In this document: positions 1,859 to 33,436 of the stretch, one piece after another
Numbering within the stretch: the first letter of the stretch is position 1
Layout of the letters: the number at the start of each line of letters is the position of its first letter
Made by a program: the position numbers and the translations under genes
The notes under the pieces: generated by a model
The model's database searches: none
What the model was told of the DNA's origin: nothing
What the model saw: the letters and a program-made list of their open reading frames with translations, nothing else
Assembly (NCBI GenBank): GCA_964483315.1
Contig: CAZAAL010000003.1
Location: 90,805-152,278, forward strand
DNA length: 61,474 nt
Direction: 5' to 3'
Source: an uncultured Candidatus Saccharibacteria bacterium
GTDB lineage: Bacteria > Patescibacteriota > Saccharimonadia > Saccharimonadales > UBA10212

Positions 1859-2854
1859 TTATCTGTTTTTTGCAACAATTTTGGGCTTAGATGAATATCT
1901 GATGATGAGCGTCGTAGCAACTGCGACAATAATACTGCCAACGAAAATCGTAATCATCATCCTAGATAAACCTCCAAAGACGGCACTCGTTAGGGCGCTA
2001 ACAAAATCAGCTACTGTCTTATCTTGACTTAGCTTAACACGGCTAAAAACAAAGATTATTAGTGCTGTGAGCCCGCTTGATACTGCTAATCCAAATGCTA
2101 GCTTGCGAACCATTTTTAGCCGTCTGTTGGCAACTAATACAGCCAAACCGGCAAAGATAATACTTAAAATGAGGGCTGTTGTATCAACACTAACAAATTT
2201 TTTATAAGCTTGTCTGGCGTCACTAATGGCCTGAGCGTCAAGACTGATAACTCCTGATTCTTCACTCAGCTTAATTTCTTGACCTAAATTAAGCTCCTGC
2301 TTATTTACTAGATTAATCAGTTCTTGAAGTTGTGGTCCTACGCTAATTTTAGCAATCGAGTTATCCTCAGACTCAAGTGTTTTTATGATTTGGCTATGAG
2401 CTGTACTTACAAGTGAGACCCAAATTCTTCCAAACTGATCAGAGCTCATTACCCTATCAATAGTACTGTCAACCTTTTGATCTAACTGAGTTTCAAGAAC
2501 AGGGGTTATTTGAGCGCCTACTGGTGTTTTAAGCAGTTCGTTCGCTAGCTCAGTCTGGCTGACCTCTTCGTTAATTGTTTTACTAAGCTCACGACTAATA
2601 AGATTTTTTACTTCTTCTTTTTCAGCGAGTGGTCCGACAATTTCTACAAAATTATCAGTGTCAGTCAGGGTACGTTCTACCCAAAATGAAAAAATGGCTA
2701 TACTTGTTAAAAATAATGCCAGGCTAGCAAATGTAAAAGCCAAGCTTGCTCGCAGTTTGCTTGGTTTATCAGCGGATAGCTTAATAATTGGTTCAGATTT
2801 AGGCACCGGTTTAGTAGTGTTAGACTTAGTGGTTGCCATGATTAACATAAGCAT
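1859..2854 (-). CDS. Hypothetical integral membrane protein, paralogous in architecture to 40876..42099
   Basis: 331-aa ORF with an N-terminal TM, then the motif W-x-x-R-T-L-x-D-T-D-N-F, a helical soluble region and C-terminal TM helices. No family recognised. Confidence 0.6.
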   Translation of the reverse strand: MLMLIMATTKSNTTKPVPKSEPIIKLSADKPSKLRASLAFTFASLALFLTSIAIFSFWVERTLTDTDNFVEIVGPLAEKEEVKNLISRELSKTINEEVSQTELANELLKTPVGAQITPVLETQLDQKVDSTIDRVMSSDQFGRIWVSLVSTAHSQIIKTLESEDNSIAKISVGPQLQELINLVNKQELNLGQEIKLSEESGVISLDAQAISDARQAYKKFVSVDTTALILSIIFAGLAVLVANRRLKMVRKLAFGLAVSSGLTALIIFVFSRVKLSQDKTVADFVSALTSAVFGGLSRMMITIFVGSIIVAVATTLIIRYSSKPKIVAKNR

Positions 2855-2913
2855 AACAAGGATTTAAAAAAATTACACCTTTGGGGTAAATAATTGTAAA
2901 ATAATATAGCCTT

Positions 2914-2988
2914 GGCCCCATCGTCTAGCGGTTAGGACGCAAGGTTCTCATCCTTGTAACAGGGGTTCGATTCCCCTTGGGGTCACCA
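2914..2988 (+). tRNA. tRNA-Glu (anticodon CUC), CCA encoded
   Basis: Cloverleaf read by eye. Acceptor GGCCCCA/TGGGGTC, anticodon stem CAAGG/CCTTG with loop TTCTCAT (CTC), T-arm AGGGG-TTCGATT-CCCCT, discriminator A plus CCA. Confidence 0.9.
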
Positions 2989-2994
2989 AAAAAA

Positions 2995-4263
2995 TTATGG
3001 AACGTATTTTACGTCAGCTGGATTGTCGACAACAGTAACCCAGGTTTGCCCTGGGTTTAGTTTTATCTCGGCTCCAGCCGAATCCTTAAAGGCAAATTGA
3101 CTTTTGCTGTCGGTCTTTGACCATGTACCAGAGGTTACGTTGCCATCTTGAAAAACATACATCTGGCCTGAACCGGTTGTGCCGTACGCTGTACGCCAGC
3201 CATCATTGGCTTTCACCGTACTGAATGGCATCACGAGTGCAATCACTACCTTTGGGCTAAGTTGCCGTGGAGCAGGATCTTTTTGGCTAGTTACATCAAC
3301 ATGTGGCTTTCCTGCTTGGCTCCGTAAATAACTATTAGTTACTGGGTCATAGTCGTAATGAACATTGTAATAAAACCCCGAAACATTAAAGTCTATCGAT
3401 TTGGCGGTGGGAGTTGGAAGTTTTGACTCATTTTTTCTTGACCATGGTGTAAAGGTGCTGCTGTTAAAGCCCTTTGCAGAATTTAGAGCATTTAGTTTTT
3501 CAAAGCTGGTGTAAACATTATGAGGCGCATAACGTTCTGAAATACGCCAGTATGAACCAGCGTTAAAAAATTGGTCTAAATCTTTGTGGCCTGGGCTCCT
3601 TATAATATCTAGCGCATCCCTACTGCCACCAACATGAGCAACAGAAGCATCGAATGGGTCTATCCAATCAATGTAGTATGGCCTAAGACTACGGACTGGT
3701 CCGATATATGCCGGTTGGCTTTCTAAAAACAGGGTGGCAAATCTGGTTATTCCGCCTTCGGCAATAGCCTCAAAGATAATTCCGGCATCTCTTAGAGCAG
3801 ATTGAGGGCGGGCATCTGGGCTGTTTTCAATCATGATTGCAGTAACTGGTCTTTTAGCAAGCTCCGGGCTAATTTGTGTTCCAGTTAAAGGTGATGCCAC
3901 AGTTGTTGGTTTTGCAGGTTCGGTTTTTTTTACAGCTGTAACTTTTTTTGCAGGTTCGGTTTTCGGTTCTGGCTTAAAAACAAAATAATATGTCGCACTG
4001 GCACTTAAACTAATTAAAAGGAACAATCCTACCAATAAGATTATTTTTTTCTTTGTAAAGAAAGGTTTTTTTGGGTTAGGTTGATTTGGCACATTCTCAA
4101 TAGTTCCTTCGATTGGTACAGAAAGATTAGGTGAGGCATTTGGCTCACTTAAGCGTTGTTTAGCACCATCTGCAGAATGCCCGACTAACCTCTGTCCGCG
4201 CATCGGTTGACGGTTATTGGTAGTAGGTAATTTTGGTTCGGGTGGTTTTATGTCTTCAATCAT
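2995..4263 (-). CDS. DUF3048 (YerB-like) domain protein, membrane anchored
   Basis: PLTG...RPVTAIMIENSPDARPQSALRDAGIIFEAIAEGGITRFATLF...IGPVRSLRPYY matches the conserved DUF3048 core. There is an N-terminal tail plus a single TM. Confidence 0.8.
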   Translation of the reverse strand: MIEDIKPPEPKLPTTNNRQPMRGQRLVGHSADGAKQRLSEPNASPNLSVPIEGTIENVPNQPNPKKPFFTKKKIILLVGLFLLISLSASATYYFVFKPEPKTEPAKKVTAVKKTEPAKPTTVASPLTGTQISPELAKRPVTAIMIENSPDARPQSALRDAGIIFEAIAEGGITRFATLFLESQPAYIGPVRSLRPYYIDWIDPFDASVAHVGGSRDALDIIRSPGHKDLDQFFNAGSYWRISERYAPHNVYTSFEKLNALNSAKGFNSSTFTPWSRKNESKLPTPTAKSIDFNVSGFYYNVHYDYDPVTNSYLRSQAGKPHVDVTSQKDPAPRQLSPKVVIALVMPFSTVKANDGWRTAYGTTGSGQMYVFQDGNVTSGTWSKTDSKSQFAFKDSAGAEIKLNPGQTWVTVVDNPADVKYVP

Positions 4264-28710: not shown

Positions 28711-29172
28711 CTAAACTAAGTAGCCCTCTGGCTGGGTTTTGCAAATTGCCTCTACTTCTTTGCTGGTGTATTCAAGGCTATATTCTGGGGTTGCTAGCCC
28801 GATGACTAAACAGTTACCAATGTTACCTGCGACTTTGATGTTTAATTTGTATATTTGTTCTTGGTTTATTTCTCTGTCGCAAGTAACGGTACCAGCCTGT
28901 AAATCATTAAGGGACGCGCCCTTTAAACCAAGCCCACCCAAAACTTTATTTATATCAAGATAGCTACTTCGAAGCGATGCGCTTTCCCAGGTTGCTGGGT
29001 GCTCAATTCGGCATTCGGGGGTTTGTGGCAATGCATCCTCAGCCTTATTGGTGTTAAAGACATCACCAAATAAAGCAGCTGACGCTAAACCTAGGAAGAT
29101 CGCTGCGAGAGTTGATTTATTGCCTTTATTGCTTAACCCAGTCGCTGACTCCTTAGATTGACCTTTAGGCAT
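28711..29172 (-). CDS. Hypothetical small secreted/anchored protein
   Basis: 153 aa, with an N-terminal hydrophobic segment LAAIFLGLASAALF. Confidence 0.5.
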   Translation of the reverse strand: MPKGQSKESATGLSNKGNKSTLAAIFLGLASAALFGDVFNTNKAEDALPQTPECRIEHPATWESASLRSSYLDINKVLGGLGLKGASLNDLQAGTVTCDREINQEQIYKLNIKVAGNIGNCLVIGLATPEYSLEYTSKEVEAICKTQPEGYLV

Positions 29173-31164: not shown

Positions 31165-31193
31165 TTTACAAACGTACATACATATGTTAATAT
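31165..31193 (+). promoter_or_regulatory. Sigma70-like promoter TTTACA-N17-TAATAT
   Basis: Hexamers at 31165-31170 and 31188-31193 with a 17-nt spacer. The same hexamer pair occurs upstream of atpB. Confidence 0.45.
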
Positions 31194-31206
31194 ACATGTG
31201 TTATAG

Positions 31207-31237
31207 CGAGGGCGGTATTTCATACCACCTCGTTTTT
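31207..31237 (+). terminator. Intrinsic-terminator-like hairpin plus T5 in the leader of the LPNTG mini-ORF (possible attenuator)
   Basis: CGAGG-GC-GGTA / TTTCA / TACC-A-CCTCG followed by TTTTT. There is no upstream plus-strand gene for it to terminate. Confidence 0.5.
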
Positions 31238-31260
31238 AATTAACCCAAAAGGAGTTAGGG

Positions 31261-31437
31261 ATGACTGAAAATCCAGTAACCCCTGCTGTACTATCAACTA
31301 GTGGAGCAGTAGTTCTACCAAACACTGGTGGAAATAGCGTACTAACTGTTATTGCTATATCAGCAATTTTAGTTGGTGTTGCAATCCTTTTGACAATGGG
31401 TGCAAAATCCGTTGCTAAAAGGGTTTATAAAGCCTAA
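31261..31437 (+). CDS. 58-aa sorting-signal-only protein: short N-tail, LPNTG, hydrophobic helix, basic tail
   Basis: Manual translation: MTENPVTPAVLSTSGAVVLPNTGGNSVLTVIAISAILVGVAILLTMGAKSVAKRVYKA*. SD AAAGGAG ends about 7 nt upstream. There is an in-frame TAA at 31237-31239. Not in the supplied track because it is under 60 aa. Confidence 0.6.
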   Translation: MTENPVTPAVLSTSGAVVLPNTGGNSVLTVIAISAILVGVAILLTMGAKSVAKRVYKA

Positions 31438-31464
31438 ATTTGTTTAGGTTTTAGAGGTGGATAT

Positions 31465-32097
31465 ATGAAGAAAACGAGCATTAACTCAGCCCAAAGCGCT
31501 AAGTCCGATGCTCGTTTTTTTCGTGGACGTGGCATACATGATTTAATTTGGCTAGGTATCGGGCTAGTTGTTTGTGGGTTGATTGTACTTTTTAAAGATG
31601 GGCAGTTAGCAAACAATTTTACTTCTAGCTCAGCCAGCATAGTTTTTGCTTCAGCGCCCGATGAAGTAAAAAAACAACCAATATCAGGTATACCTACTTT
31701 TATAAGTGTAAGTTCAGTAGGTATTAACAATCTTGTTGTAGCCGAAGGTAAATACAGTCCAACGACAAAACAGTGGACACTTTCCAACGACAAAGCTCAC
31801 TTTGCAGAAATATCGACTCCGGCCAATGATACCAAAGGTAATACATTCATATACGGCCATTATCGACCAGGCGTTTTTGTTAATCTCAAAAAACTAAAAA
31901 CGGACGATCTTGCCGTAGTTAAAACGGACAACAATCGCTCATTCGTATATAAATTCAGGACAAGTGTAACTGTTCAGCCTAACGATGCAAGCACATTTGC
32001 CCATAAAGGAACGTCAATCTTGACTCTTCAGACTTGCACGGGGGCGTTTTTCCAGAATCGTCAATTATATATCTTTGACTTTGTGGAGGTAAAGTAA
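31465..32097 (+). CDS. Sortase-family transpeptidase
   Basis: N-terminal TM, His context FIYGHY, TLxTC motif ILTLQTCTG, and a downstream Arg (QNRQLYIF). Confidence 0.85.
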   Translation: MKKTSINSAQSAKSDARFFRGRGIHDLIWLGIGLVVCGLIVLFKDGQLANNFTSSSASIVFASAPDEVKKQPISGIPTFISVSSVGINNLVVAEGKYSPTTKQWTLSNDKAHFAEISTPANDTKGNTFIYGHYRPGVFVNLKKLKTDDLAVVKTDNNRSFVYKFRTSVTVQPNDASTFAHKGTSILTLQTCTGAFFQNRQLYIFDFVEVK

Positions 32098-32098
32098 A

Positions 32099-33436
32099 AT
32101 GTTGCAACAGCTAATTCTATATATGTTCATTTTTGTTGCTTTACTAAATATTTTACATTTTGGTTTGTTTCAGGTGGGTGCAAATCTTTACGATATAAAA
32201 GATTACAAGCGAAAATCACGACTACCAAAAAGGCGAAATCACAATCCTTTGGTTAGTGTTATAGTACCGGCGCATAACGAAGAATCGGTAATCACAAGGA
32301 CTCTGAGCACGATACTTAAAAGTAATTACAAAAATCTTGAGATTATCGTTGTTGATGATGGCTCAAAAGATAAAACAGCTTTAGTAGTACGAAATTTCAT
32401 ATCTGGCTTGCCGGAAAGGCGGAGATACTATCTTAGGAGAGACTGGCGTTCAGGAAAAATGCGAAGGATCAGCACAGGGCTTAGTTATACTGGTCCGGTT
32501 GTCAGGTTGGTTAAACAGCAAAACGGCGGTAAGGCATCAGCAATGAATAATGCCATTAAAAACCATGCTAGGGGCGAGCTTATAATGTGCCTTGATGCTG
32601 ACTCAGTTCTTAGCCCAGAAGCAATAAGGAATGCAGTTAATCATTTTAATGATCCAAAAGTTATAGGTGTTGCTGCTAATGTGACGATTATAAATCCAAA
32701 GGGCGTTTTAGGTGTTCTACAAAAGTTTGAGCACATGATTGGTTATCGATCAAAAAAGTTTTACACAATTGCAAACAGCGAATTTTTAGTTGGTGGAGTA
32801 GGTTCTACCTACCGCTCTGAAGTGTTAAAAAAGGTAGGCTTTTATGATGAAGACACAATTACCGAAGACATTGGTCTTAGCATGAAGATTGTAAGTGAGC
32901 TAGGCAACTTAGACCAAAAAGTAGTTTATGCTTCTGATGTTGTTGCGTCAACCGAAGCAGTAATGAGCTTTAATGATCTTTTAAAGCAACGTTATAGATG
33001 GAAAATGGGCAACCTACAAAACTTAATAAAATACAAGCATCTACTTGGTTCGCTTAAACGGCATAAATATAGTCGTGGGCTAACACTTTATCGTATCCCT
33101 ATGGCTATACTTGGCGAAGTATTATTATTGATGCAGCCATTTATGCTGGCCTATGTAACTTACCTAGCAATTGCCTATCAATCAATTGGAGTTTTTCTTG
33201 GTGCATATATTGTTATGTCGCTGGTTTCAATAATGGCATTATGGCCCGATGAAAATAACAGCTTTAAGCAGAAGCTGGGCTGGAGTCTAGCAATACCATT
33301 CCTATACTTCATATTTTTTATTATGGATGTAGTGCAAATAGTATCAGTCTTTAAATGCTTATTGAATCACAAAAAAATGCGTAGAATCGATAGCTCTAGT
33401 TCGACTTGGGTTTCACCAAAACGCGCAGGTGTTTAA
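32099..33436 (+). CDS. Processive family-2 glycosyltransferase (PgaC/IcaA/cellulose-synthase-like polysaccharide synthase)
   Basis: VSVIVPAHNEE, VDDGSKD, GGKASAMNNA, LDADS, TEDIGLS and QRYRW (QxxRW), flanked by N- and C-terminal TM helices. The start is 1 nt after the sortase stop. Confidence 0.85.
   Translation: MLQQLILYMFIFVALLNILHFGLFQVGANLYDIKDYKRKSRLPKRRNHNPLVSVIVPAHNEESVITRTLSTILKSNYKNLEIIVVDDGSKDKTALVVRNFISGLPERRRYYLRRDWRSGKMRRISTGLSYTGPVVRLVKQQNGGKASAMNNAIKNHARGELIMCLDADSVLSPEAIRNAVNHFNDPKVIGVAANVTIINPKGVLGVLQKFEHMIGYRSKKFYTIANSEFLVGGVGSTYRSEVLKKVGFYDEDTITEDIGLSMKIVSELGNLDQKVVYASDVVASTEAVMSFNDLLKQRYRWKMGNLQNLIKYKHLLGSLKRHKYSRGLTLYRIPMAILGEVLLLMQPFMLAYVTYLAIAYQSIGVFLGAYIVMSLVSIMALWPDENNSFKQKLGWSLAIPFLYFIFFIMDVVQIVSVFKCLLNHKKMRRIDSSSSTWVSPKRAGV

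Follow-up and report, generated by a model that had tools for sequence, protein, structure and literature searches.

Sortases that do not build pili use, by default, the cross-bridge of peptidoglycan on lipid II as their acceptor. In Actinomyces oris, GspA, LcpA and SrtA constitute a system in which a sortase substrate carries a glycan to the wall (PMC6381275), and PEP-CTERM/exosortase systems are encoded in exopolysaccharide loci (Haft; summarised in 10.1101/2023.06.07.544157). A sortase family is also present in more than half of the genomes of the Candidate Phyla Radiation (CPR), in a study in which substrates were not addressed (PMC6744442). Here we describe a gene for a 58-aa LPXTG protein (the mini-protein, encoded by the mini-ORF, a short open reading frame) in a 61,474-nucleotide stretch of DNA from an uncultured Candidatus Saccharibacteria bacterium (GCA_964483315.1, contig CAZAAL010000003.1), referred to below as the window. 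The gene lies in a recurrent cassette together with a sortase, a processive GT2 polysaccharide synthase and a CE4 polysaccharide deacetylase. To our knowledge, sortase substrates in CPR bacteria are essentially undescribed. The explanation that we favour, and to which we give about an even chance of being right as a whole, is that the mini-ORF genuinely encodes a minimal substrate dedicated to the sortase of a CE4-mini-LPXTG-sortase-GT2 cassette, and that its peptide would anchor a polymer.

A sorting signal encoded as a gene of its own

The mini-protein is made up of an 18-residue N-terminal tail (N-tail), an LPNTG motif, a hydrophobic helix and a positively charged C-terminal tail. It passes the cut-off of the NCBIfam LPXTG_anchor model TIGR01167 (18.6 bits, cut-off 15.9) and falls slightly short of that of Pfam PF00746 (17.7 bits, cut-off 20). 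LPXTG models were its sole matches in Pfam and NCBIfam at E<=0.1, and none was obtained to the IcaD or PgaD family models. Neither an N-terminal Sec or Tat signal peptide nor a passenger domain could be recognized in the protein: only 18 residues precede the LPNTG, they lack a basic n-region, their mean hydropathy is 0.66, and E3 is the sole charged residue among them. No other LPXTG-type ORF is present in the window.

An initial annotation of the window had picked out the mini-ORF together with its Shine-Dalgarno sequence, an in-frame TAA upstream of it at 31237 and the order of LPNTG, helix and basic tail, and had placed the sortase gene 27 nt after the mini-ORF and the GT2 gene 1 nt after the sortase stop. 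All of these features are present where they had been located, and both distances are borne out. The further reading of the protein as a sorting signal without passenger or signal peptide, from which a cargo of 22 residues would be transferred, is consistent with the sequence.

Conservation of the mini-protein family

A word-indexed search with the mini-ORF retrieved six relatives, all of 57 aa and with an invariant LPNTG, and each is preceded by a Shine-Dalgarno sequence and a close upstream in-frame stop. AAGGAG or GGAGG stands at the equivalent position in all orthologues. The full family emerged only by way of an exhaustive hidden Markov model (HMM) search and the sortase-anchored survey of loci described below. 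The HMM search covered 1.84 billion representative proteins and gave 110 matches at E<=1e-3, 108 of which are 50 to 96 aa long with the matched region at the C terminus. In the longer matches and in a single one of 139 aa, an internal 'MY...' marks the true start, and the sole large protein, of 1562 aa, is a weak and repetitive match. Among these matches there was no full-length surface protein ending in a signal of the mini-protein type.

From the loci and the representative proteins together we compiled 164 distinct sequences, the set to which the following family counts refer. Family members are 50 to 69 aa long (median 59), with N-tails of 7 to 32 aa (median 19), and begin with MY in 77% and MS in 13% of cases. 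In the motif, L and P are present in 100%, N in 75%, T in 98% and G in 84% of the sequences; the variants are LPNT[S/A/H/N]G and LP[A/S/H/D/K]TG, and the motif is followed by G/S/D and then N/S. The N-tails are rich in small residues (21% G, 17% A, 15% V, 12% T, 7% S), follow a loose MY-G-x-V-L-G-A-S/T-T pattern and have a net charge of -1 to +2, and the last 14 residues carry a net charge of +1 to +5 in 163 of the 164 sequences. Conservation extends into the membrane segment and tail, where a Gly in mid-membrane (position +20) is kept in 88% and an Arg at +30 in 54% of the family. Two types can be told apart. Type 1, which includes the protein of the window, has LPNTG(G/S/D)N, a nearly fixed tail (..AR(F/L)(V/I)AKKAYKA; the C-terminal 12 residues of the window protein are encoded at 31399-31434) and a co-directional GT2 gene, while in type 2 the motifs and tails vary more and the GT2 gene is convergent, so that tail type co-varies with GT2 orientation and operon layout.

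The gene is under purifying selection. In every pair of mini-ORFs, pN was 0.08 to 0.41 against a pS of 0.52 to 0.80 (Nei-Gojobori), and among the closer loci the mini-protein is better conserved than the sortase. In 57 gap-free pairs of 55 to 98% identity, dN/dS was 0.22 in the N-tail and 0.18 in the remainder, values that are approximate since synonymous sites approach saturation in distant pairs. Selection therefore acts on both the N-tail and the sorting signal, and the 'cargo' is as constrained as the signal itself.

These data bear directly on the suspicion that the mini-ORF is what decay has left of the 3' end of a surface-protein gene, or an unexpressed chance ORF, as might be thought of a reading frame so short and missing from the supplied annotation track. 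A chance origin is countered by the conservation of length, start, Shine-Dalgarno sequence, upstream stops and synteny over 164 distinct homologues, with pN far below pS, and the identical protein has been called as a gene on eight public contigs. The remnant idea is refuted by the profile search, since no full-length relative carries the signal. We consider either form of this explanation extremely improbable and have rejected it; the mini-ORF is a real gene.

A separate feature of a few N-tails is a pair of Cys residues, 3 to 10 residues apart (for example ..SACTGTCAA..), seen in seven of the 164 (P0135, P0150, P0157, P0162, P0172, P0230 and P0233; also L090 3242-3430). The pair suggests a disulfide loop or another modification.

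Synteny of the cassette and its hosts

When neighbourhoods were looked up from the side of the mini-ORF, the order mini-ORF, sortase, GT2, with the CE4 deacetylase just upstream, was found in every case. To avoid circularity over the mini-ORF, metagenome contigs were also searched with the sortase alignment alone and the neighbours then inspected, which yielded 80 loci. The 76 loci used for the count of mini-ORFs pool these with loci found earlier from the mini-ORF, were required to have at least 250 nt before the sortase, and include approximately eight duplicate contigs from related samples. The mini-ORF is present in 75 of them, and the single locus without it has merely 289 nt of upstream sequence. 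Loci missed by a strict LPxTG screen were explained by LPNT[S/H/A/N]G variants, ORFs cut by a contig end or an over-extended sortase start. A GT2 homologue starts no more than 1.6 kb downstream of the sortase in 54 of the 55 loci with room for it, 32 times co-directional and 22 times convergent, and a CE4 deacetylase lies upstream in 29 of the 37 loci that extend 3 kb or more in that direction. Three GT2 homologues taken as starting points led to the same cassette in all three cases (L092-L094, with a deacetylase homologue).

The synteny that makes the mini-ORF a member of a cassette with the sortase and GT2 is near-obligate, and the CE4 deacetylase is a fourth regular member. The initial annotation had argued that the mini-ORF is not the 3' end of a larger gene and had suggested that synteny in related genomes and selection on the small ORF be examined. 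On all three points the larger sample agrees with it: the gene order recurs in homologous loci, purifying selection is found, and the homologues are themselves mini-proteins of 50 to 69 aa.

The non-duplicate DNA of the loci, 419 kb in all, was found to encode no other LPXTG protein of at least 90 aa, save one in the outlying locus L076. There, the usual place of the mini-ORF is taken by the gene for a conventional LPVTG protein of 176 aa, which has a clear signal peptide at its N terminus (1494-2024, +), and this gene is followed by a distant sortase of the same clade (2053-2652) and a short GT2-like gene (2649-3560). This arrangement may represent the ancestral, conventional form that gave rise to the mini-proteins, or an alternative form of the cassette. 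A different, second sortase gene, encoding 188 aa, was seen in locus L005 (457-1023, +), approximately 5 kb upstream of the cassette, and at least some of the host organisms thus have more than one sortase.

The host lineage of the cassette is Saccharibacteria. The source names of the homologues are mostly 'Candidatus Saccharimonadales/Saccharibacteria bacterium' (CPR), the labels of metagenome-assembled genomes being mixed (one contig is assigned to Limnocylindria and one to Verrucomicrobiae), and the window proteins are approximately 50-55% identical to their nearest relatives. A search of genome contigs with the sortase gave a single locus, from Anaerolineaceae, where the sortase domain is part of a fusion with a 1412-aa ORF; this locus is unrelated and was set aside.

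The sortase

The protein encoded downstream of the mini-ORF has a basic N terminus, a single transmembrane helix (residues 24-42) and a sortase domain that scores 64 bits with PF04203 (cut-off 26.6). Its catalytic residues are intact: H132, C191 and R199 are invariant across 32 homologues. The AlphaFold2 (AF2) model (pLDDT 86) matches sortases of classes E, A and C with a Foldseek probability of 1.0. The domain HMM, the His, the Cys in TLxTC and the Arg, along with the predicted eight-stranded beta-barrel fold, identify the protein as a sortase. None of the NCBIfam cut-offs for sortase classes A to F was reached; the best class model was D (37-38 bits versus 140-165), followed by E, C and F (25-30 bits versus approximately 160). 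The nearest relatives are class D by HMM, D and E by sequence against the PDB, and E and A by fold, with none of them close, and we treat the enzyme as a member of an unclassified clade. Judging from residues and models, the enzymes of the cassette look functional.

Class C sortases polymerise pilins, and the enzyme of the cassette might likewise polymerise its peptide, head-to-tail or via Lys into a thin fibre, or else cyclise it or set it free by hydrolysis to act as a soluble signal. The MY start in 77% of the tails and a Lys near the N terminus in 39 of the 164 could be read in this way. However, the other 125 tails have no Lys, the N termini vary (MY, MSG, MT) and offer no uniform nucleophile, and the modelled sortase is without the lid-type signature of class C, its nearest solved structures being of classes E, D and A. 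The synteny with a synthase and a deacetylase would also be left unexplained, and we regard such activities as very unlikely.

The polysaccharide synthase and the deacetylase

The third gene of the cassette encodes a GT2 protein with the motifs DDG86, DAD166-168, TED255-257 and QRYRW297-301, one hydrophobic segment at the N terminus and three at the C terminus. Its AF2 model (pLDDT 85) is nearest in fold to hyaluronan synthase (Cv-HAS; query-normalised TM-score approximately 0.68), BcsA and chitin synthases (Chs1). By motifs and modelled fold it is a membrane-integrated synthase of the BcsA/HAS/chitin synthase type, predicted to both polymerise and translocate its product. The best NCBIfam match is PgaC_IcaA (TIGR03937, 2.9e-47), at 161.5 bits against an equivalog cut-off of 422.3, and there is a partial match to the XrtG-associated GT2 family TIGR03111 (3e-23). 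Neither the PgaC_IcaA score, which is below the cut-off, nor the fold search specifies the linkage or the sugar. The presence of a CE4 enzyme beside it speaks for a polymer of N-acetylated hexosamine (HexNAc) as the predicted product. The synthase also has a very basic, family-specific insertion (RRRYYLRRDWRSGKMRR..., window 32396-32503, residues approximately 100-135) between the DDG and GGK motifs, which forms a beta-hairpin on the cytoplasmic GT-A domain in the AF2 model.

The deacetylase has a signal-like hydrophobic segment at its N terminus, and it contains a CE4 domain together with two CBM_4_9 modules (Pfam Polysacc_deac_1 2.5e-16, CBM_4_9 6.6e-9; best NCBIfam match HfsH-like, 5e-18). 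With this enzyme the cassette holds what could be a chemically complete pathway to a peptide-decorated exopolysaccharide. In such a pathway, the CE4 enzyme would uncover glucosamine (GlcN) amines on poly-HexNAc while it is being made, and these would be acylated by the sortase with the 22-aa peptide. All four components, from synthase and deacetylase to sortase and acyl donor, occur together in most loci. In vitro, amino sugars can serve sortase A as acceptors for LPXTG peptides (review PMC9060782). Yet ligation by S. aureus SrtA is limited to the -CH2-NH2 of 6-aminohexoses, other sugar amines going unused (PMC9060782), and a C2 amine would therefore be an unprecedented acceptor. It is also hard to see the benefit of attaching a peptide that has no membrane or wall anchor of its own. 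On balance we find the polysaccharide unlikely as the acceptor.

A model for the function of the cassette

Our preferred model, the dedicated minimal sortase substrate, begins with the predicted topology of the mini-protein, with which its charge and hydrophobicity agree. By the positive-inside rule, the contrast between a neutral N-tail and a C-tail of +1 to +5 predicts an N-out, C-in orientation. N-tails of such length and charge can be translocated unaided by a signal peptide, as that of the Pf3 coat protein is, and an N-out topology like that of Pf3 coat would explain why the signal peptide is missing. The 58-aa protein would accordingly insert with its uncharged 18-aa N-tail outside and its basic C-tail in the cytoplasm, by translocation of the N-tail as in Pf3 coat and probably by a YidC-type route. 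The LPNTG would then lie just outside the membrane, the position it takes in an ordinary precursor once Sec has exported it, and beside the ectodomain of the co-encoded, membrane-tethered sortase, which would cut between T22 and G23 and form a thioester with the 22-residue peptide rich in G, A, V, T and S. A primary amine in the envelope would then receive the peptide; going by non-pilin sortases, the likeliest acceptor is peptidoglycan or the lipid II cross-bridge. The near-obligate linkage with a synthase and a deacetylase suggests that peptide and polymer act in one process, in which the wall-linked peptide would work with the partly de-N-acetylated poly-HexNAc, most plausibly as its point of attachment or anchoring. 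In its logic such an arrangement would parallel GspA of A. oris (PMC6381275), and it would also be similar to the PEP-CTERM clients of exopolysaccharide loci (10.1101/2023.06.07.544157). What the data show is a gene that is real, under constraint and linked to the cassette; the insertion route, the cleavage, the acceptor and the link to the polysaccharide, whether covalent or non-covalent, are inferred.

Several observations weigh against this model. No enzyme for joining polysaccharide to peptide, such as a LytR-CpsA-Psr (LCP) protein or an O-glycosyltransferase, was seen in the cassette, and seven of the 164 N-tails have neither Ser nor Thr, which means that O-glycosylation cannot be universal. 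Synteny is a functional link whose nature it does not itself specify. The exclusivity of the substrate was assessed near the sortase, over the 419 kb of loci and the window. Finally, the Gly of the membrane segment (88%) and the type 1 cytoplasmic tail are conserved beyond the needs of a stop-transfer sequence, which may point to a separate role of the membrane part.

The last point could mean that the mini-protein is in the first place a small single-pass subunit or regulator of the synthase, as IcaD and PgaD are for IcaA and PgaC, with cleavage by the sortase switching it or producing a signalling C-peptide. The ica and pga loci likewise pair a GT2 synthase with a small membrane protein and a CE4 enzyme, and the conserved Gly at +20, the Arg at +30 (54%), the ..VAKKAYKA end of type 1 and the way in which tail type tracks operon architecture would all fit a partner of the synthase. 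Such a role does not account for an N-tail that is constrained as strongly as the remainder or for an essentially invariant LPxTG; no IcaD or PgaD model of Pfam or NCBIfam picks up the mini-protein; and a regulator needs no dedicated transpeptidase, yet the mini-protein is paired with a sortase in 75 of 76 loci. We judge a primary role of the membrane part to be quite unlikely.

Other features of the locus

The coordinates of the cassette and its leader are collected in Table 1. The region between the promoter-like site and the Shine-Dalgarno sequence can fold into a hairpin followed by a U-run (31196-31265: dG -18.4 kcal/mol, z -2.2), and a similar hairpin and T-run is found 24-50 nt 5' of the mini-ORF ATG in approximately 15-20 other loci (for example L044, L047, L064, L067, L073, L028, L056 and L068). 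An Rfam scan for a leader RNA gave tRNAs only and no family matching the hairpin, which might serve for attenuation, as a leaky terminator or to stabilise the 5' end.

Table 1. Features of the mini-LPXTG cassette in the window (positions of the window; position 1 is its first letter)
Feature	Coordinates	Strand	Details
Secreted polysaccharide deacetylase, 576 aa	29248..30978	-	divergent from mini-ORF
Promoter-like TTTACA-17-TAATAT with upstream TG	31165..31193	+	consensus match only; such matches are not above shuffled expectation in total
Leader hairpin, then U-run	31205..31239	+	between promoter-like site and Shine-Dalgarno sequence; RNA fold
Shine-Dalgarno AAAGGAG	31248-31254	+	6 nt 5' of mini-ORF ATG; sequence inspection
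Mini LPXTG protein gene, 58 aa	31261..31437	+	ATG start; protein MTENPVTPAVLSTSGAVVLPNTGGNSVLTVIAISAILVGVAILLTMGAKSVAKRVYKA
Mini-protein N-tail, residues 1-18	31261-31314	+	MTENPVTPAVLSTSGAVV
LPNTG motif, residues 19-23	31315-31329	+	
Mini-protein transmembrane segment, residues 27-45	31339-31395	+	single hydrophobic segment, Kyte-Doolittle 2.78
Mini-protein basic tail, residues 46-58	31396-31434	+	K49, K53, R54, K57
Membrane-anchored sortase, 210 aa	31465..32097	+	27-nt gap after mini-ORF; Pfam Sortase 1.2e-17
Sortase catalytic H132	31858-31860	+	
Sortase C191 in TLQTC	32035-32037	+	
Sortase R199	32059-32061	+	
Membrane-integrated processive GT2 synthase, 445 aa	32099..33436	+	1-nt gap after sortase

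Downstream of the deacetylase, a 153-aa ORF with one N-terminal hydrophobic segment (28711-29172, -) has no match in Pfam or NCBIfam and may share the divergent transcription unit of the deacetylase.

Genes for cell-wall precursors often flank the cassette in other loci, namely a MurA-like gene, MurB and serine hydroxymethyltransferase (SHMT). In 22 loci in all, a gene for a 505-520-aa fusion of an HTH_3 domain to a MurA-like protein (EPSP_synthase fold) lies convergent right after GT2 (for example L002 8225-9787(-), L005 8195-9709(-), L093 5366-6904(-) and L094 5447-6970(-)), often adjoined by SHMT and sometimes by MurB. A DNA-binding domain fused to a cell-wall precursor enzyme is an unusual combination; the fusion gene is absent after GT2 in the window. 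GH10-like proteins adjoin the cassette in 16 loci (for example L002 1072-2832, L007 786-2636 and L094 1125-2879), and GH16-like proteins are near it in a few (for example L038 6331-7377). These neighbours could serve in trimming or remodelling the polymer and hint at a beta-linked glycan.

Significance

The initial annotation had named no characterised system with this architecture as known to it. A full-text literature search found none either: queries on sortases in Saccharibacteria, Patescibacteria, CPR and TM7x, on small LPXTG proteins and on substrates without signal peptides returned no description of the cassette. For one clade of CPR sortases, the cassette provides a defined, co-encoded substrate that consists of the signal and approximately 19 residues, and it is an unusually clean system for studying both the cargo and the acceptor of a sortase. 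The rules by which sortase clients are found would be widened by a substrate that lacks a signal peptide, and the mini-ORF also illustrates the genes that are missed by short-ORF filters.

The pairing with a synthase and a deacetylase bears on how synthase-dependent polymers are retained on a Gram-positive-type wall, as polymers made without a lipid carrier have no LCP route. Saccharibacteria live attached to host bacteria, a way of life on which a surface polymer that is adhesive or anchored would bear directly. A bolder proposal is that Saccharibacteria covalently tether a de-N-acetylated, synthase-made polysaccharide by means of a sortase and an N-out ribosomal peptide of approximately 20 residues without a signal peptide. 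We put this forward tentatively, as possible rather than probable, and the same holds for the two routes it might take, in which either the sortase would acylate GlcN amines of the polymer or a glycosylated peptide would be anchored to peptidoglycan. If true, such a tether would be a previously unknown route for fixing a lipid-carrier-independent exopolysaccharide to a monoderm envelope, and the mini-proteins would be the first natural family of sortase substrates to bypass Sec and Tat signal peptides. Covalent joining of the peptide to the polysaccharide would in itself be a new mechanism.

Comparison with known systems

Canonical sorting of LPXTG proteins, as by SrtA of Staphylococcus aureus acting on protein A or by class D and E sortases, shares with the cassette the tripartite signal, the membrane anchor of the enzyme, the His-Cys-Arg triad and TLxTC, and the same cut after Thr with transfer to an amine would be expected. 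In contrast to canonical substrates, the mini-protein has no signal peptide or passenger, its predicted ectodomain is approximately 19 residues long, and its transmembrane segment and tail are unusually conserved. It is also encoded directly upstream of its own sortase in approximately 99% of loci, and this sortase, unlike the canonical ones, is below all NCBIfam cut-offs for classes A to F, with weak best matches to class D.

GspA of A. oris resembles the mini-protein in its apparent job of carrying a glycopolymer to the wall and in a stalk rich in small residues and in Ser/Thr. However, GspA is a full-size secreted protein whose glycan comes from a lipid-linked precursor and is transferred by an LCP phosphotransferase, whereas the neighbour of the mini-protein is a synthase-type GT2 without lipid carrier, in a cassette that has no LCP gene. 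PEP-CTERM systems are similar in that genes for exopolysaccharide biosynthesis are accompanied by those for a sorting enzyme and for short clients of low complexity, rich in Ser/Thr. Exosortases, on the other hand, are polytopic membrane proteins of an unrelated fold, recognise a different motif and occur mostly in diderm hosts, and PEP-CTERM clients have signal peptides. The CPR 'Pam' pilus (10.64898/2026.03.03.709456) is assembled by donor-strand exchange and is unrelated to the cassette.

The icaADBC and pgaABCD loci for poly-N-acetylglucosamine likewise combine a processive GT2 with a CE4 de-N-acetylase and a small membrane protein. The small protein of the cassette differs in being a single-pass LPXTG protein without similarity to IcaD or PgaD; IcaC, PgaA and PgaD are absent and a sortase is present; and the GT2 scores 161 bits, far below the equivalog cut-off of 422. 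In size and predicted topology the mini-protein is reminiscent of the Pf3 coat protein, which also has approximately 45-60 aa, an 18-20-aa N-tail of low charge, one transmembrane segment and a basic C-tail. This likeness is topological only, without homology, and dependence on YidC is a prediction for the mini-protein. The LPXTG signal, the sortase, the processive GT2 and the CE4 enzyme are all of known kinds; what is new is their combination, in which a substrate reduced to the signal and approximately 19 residues, without a signal peptide, is co-encoded with its sortase in a synthase-dependent polysaccharide locus that is distributed across Saccharibacteria.

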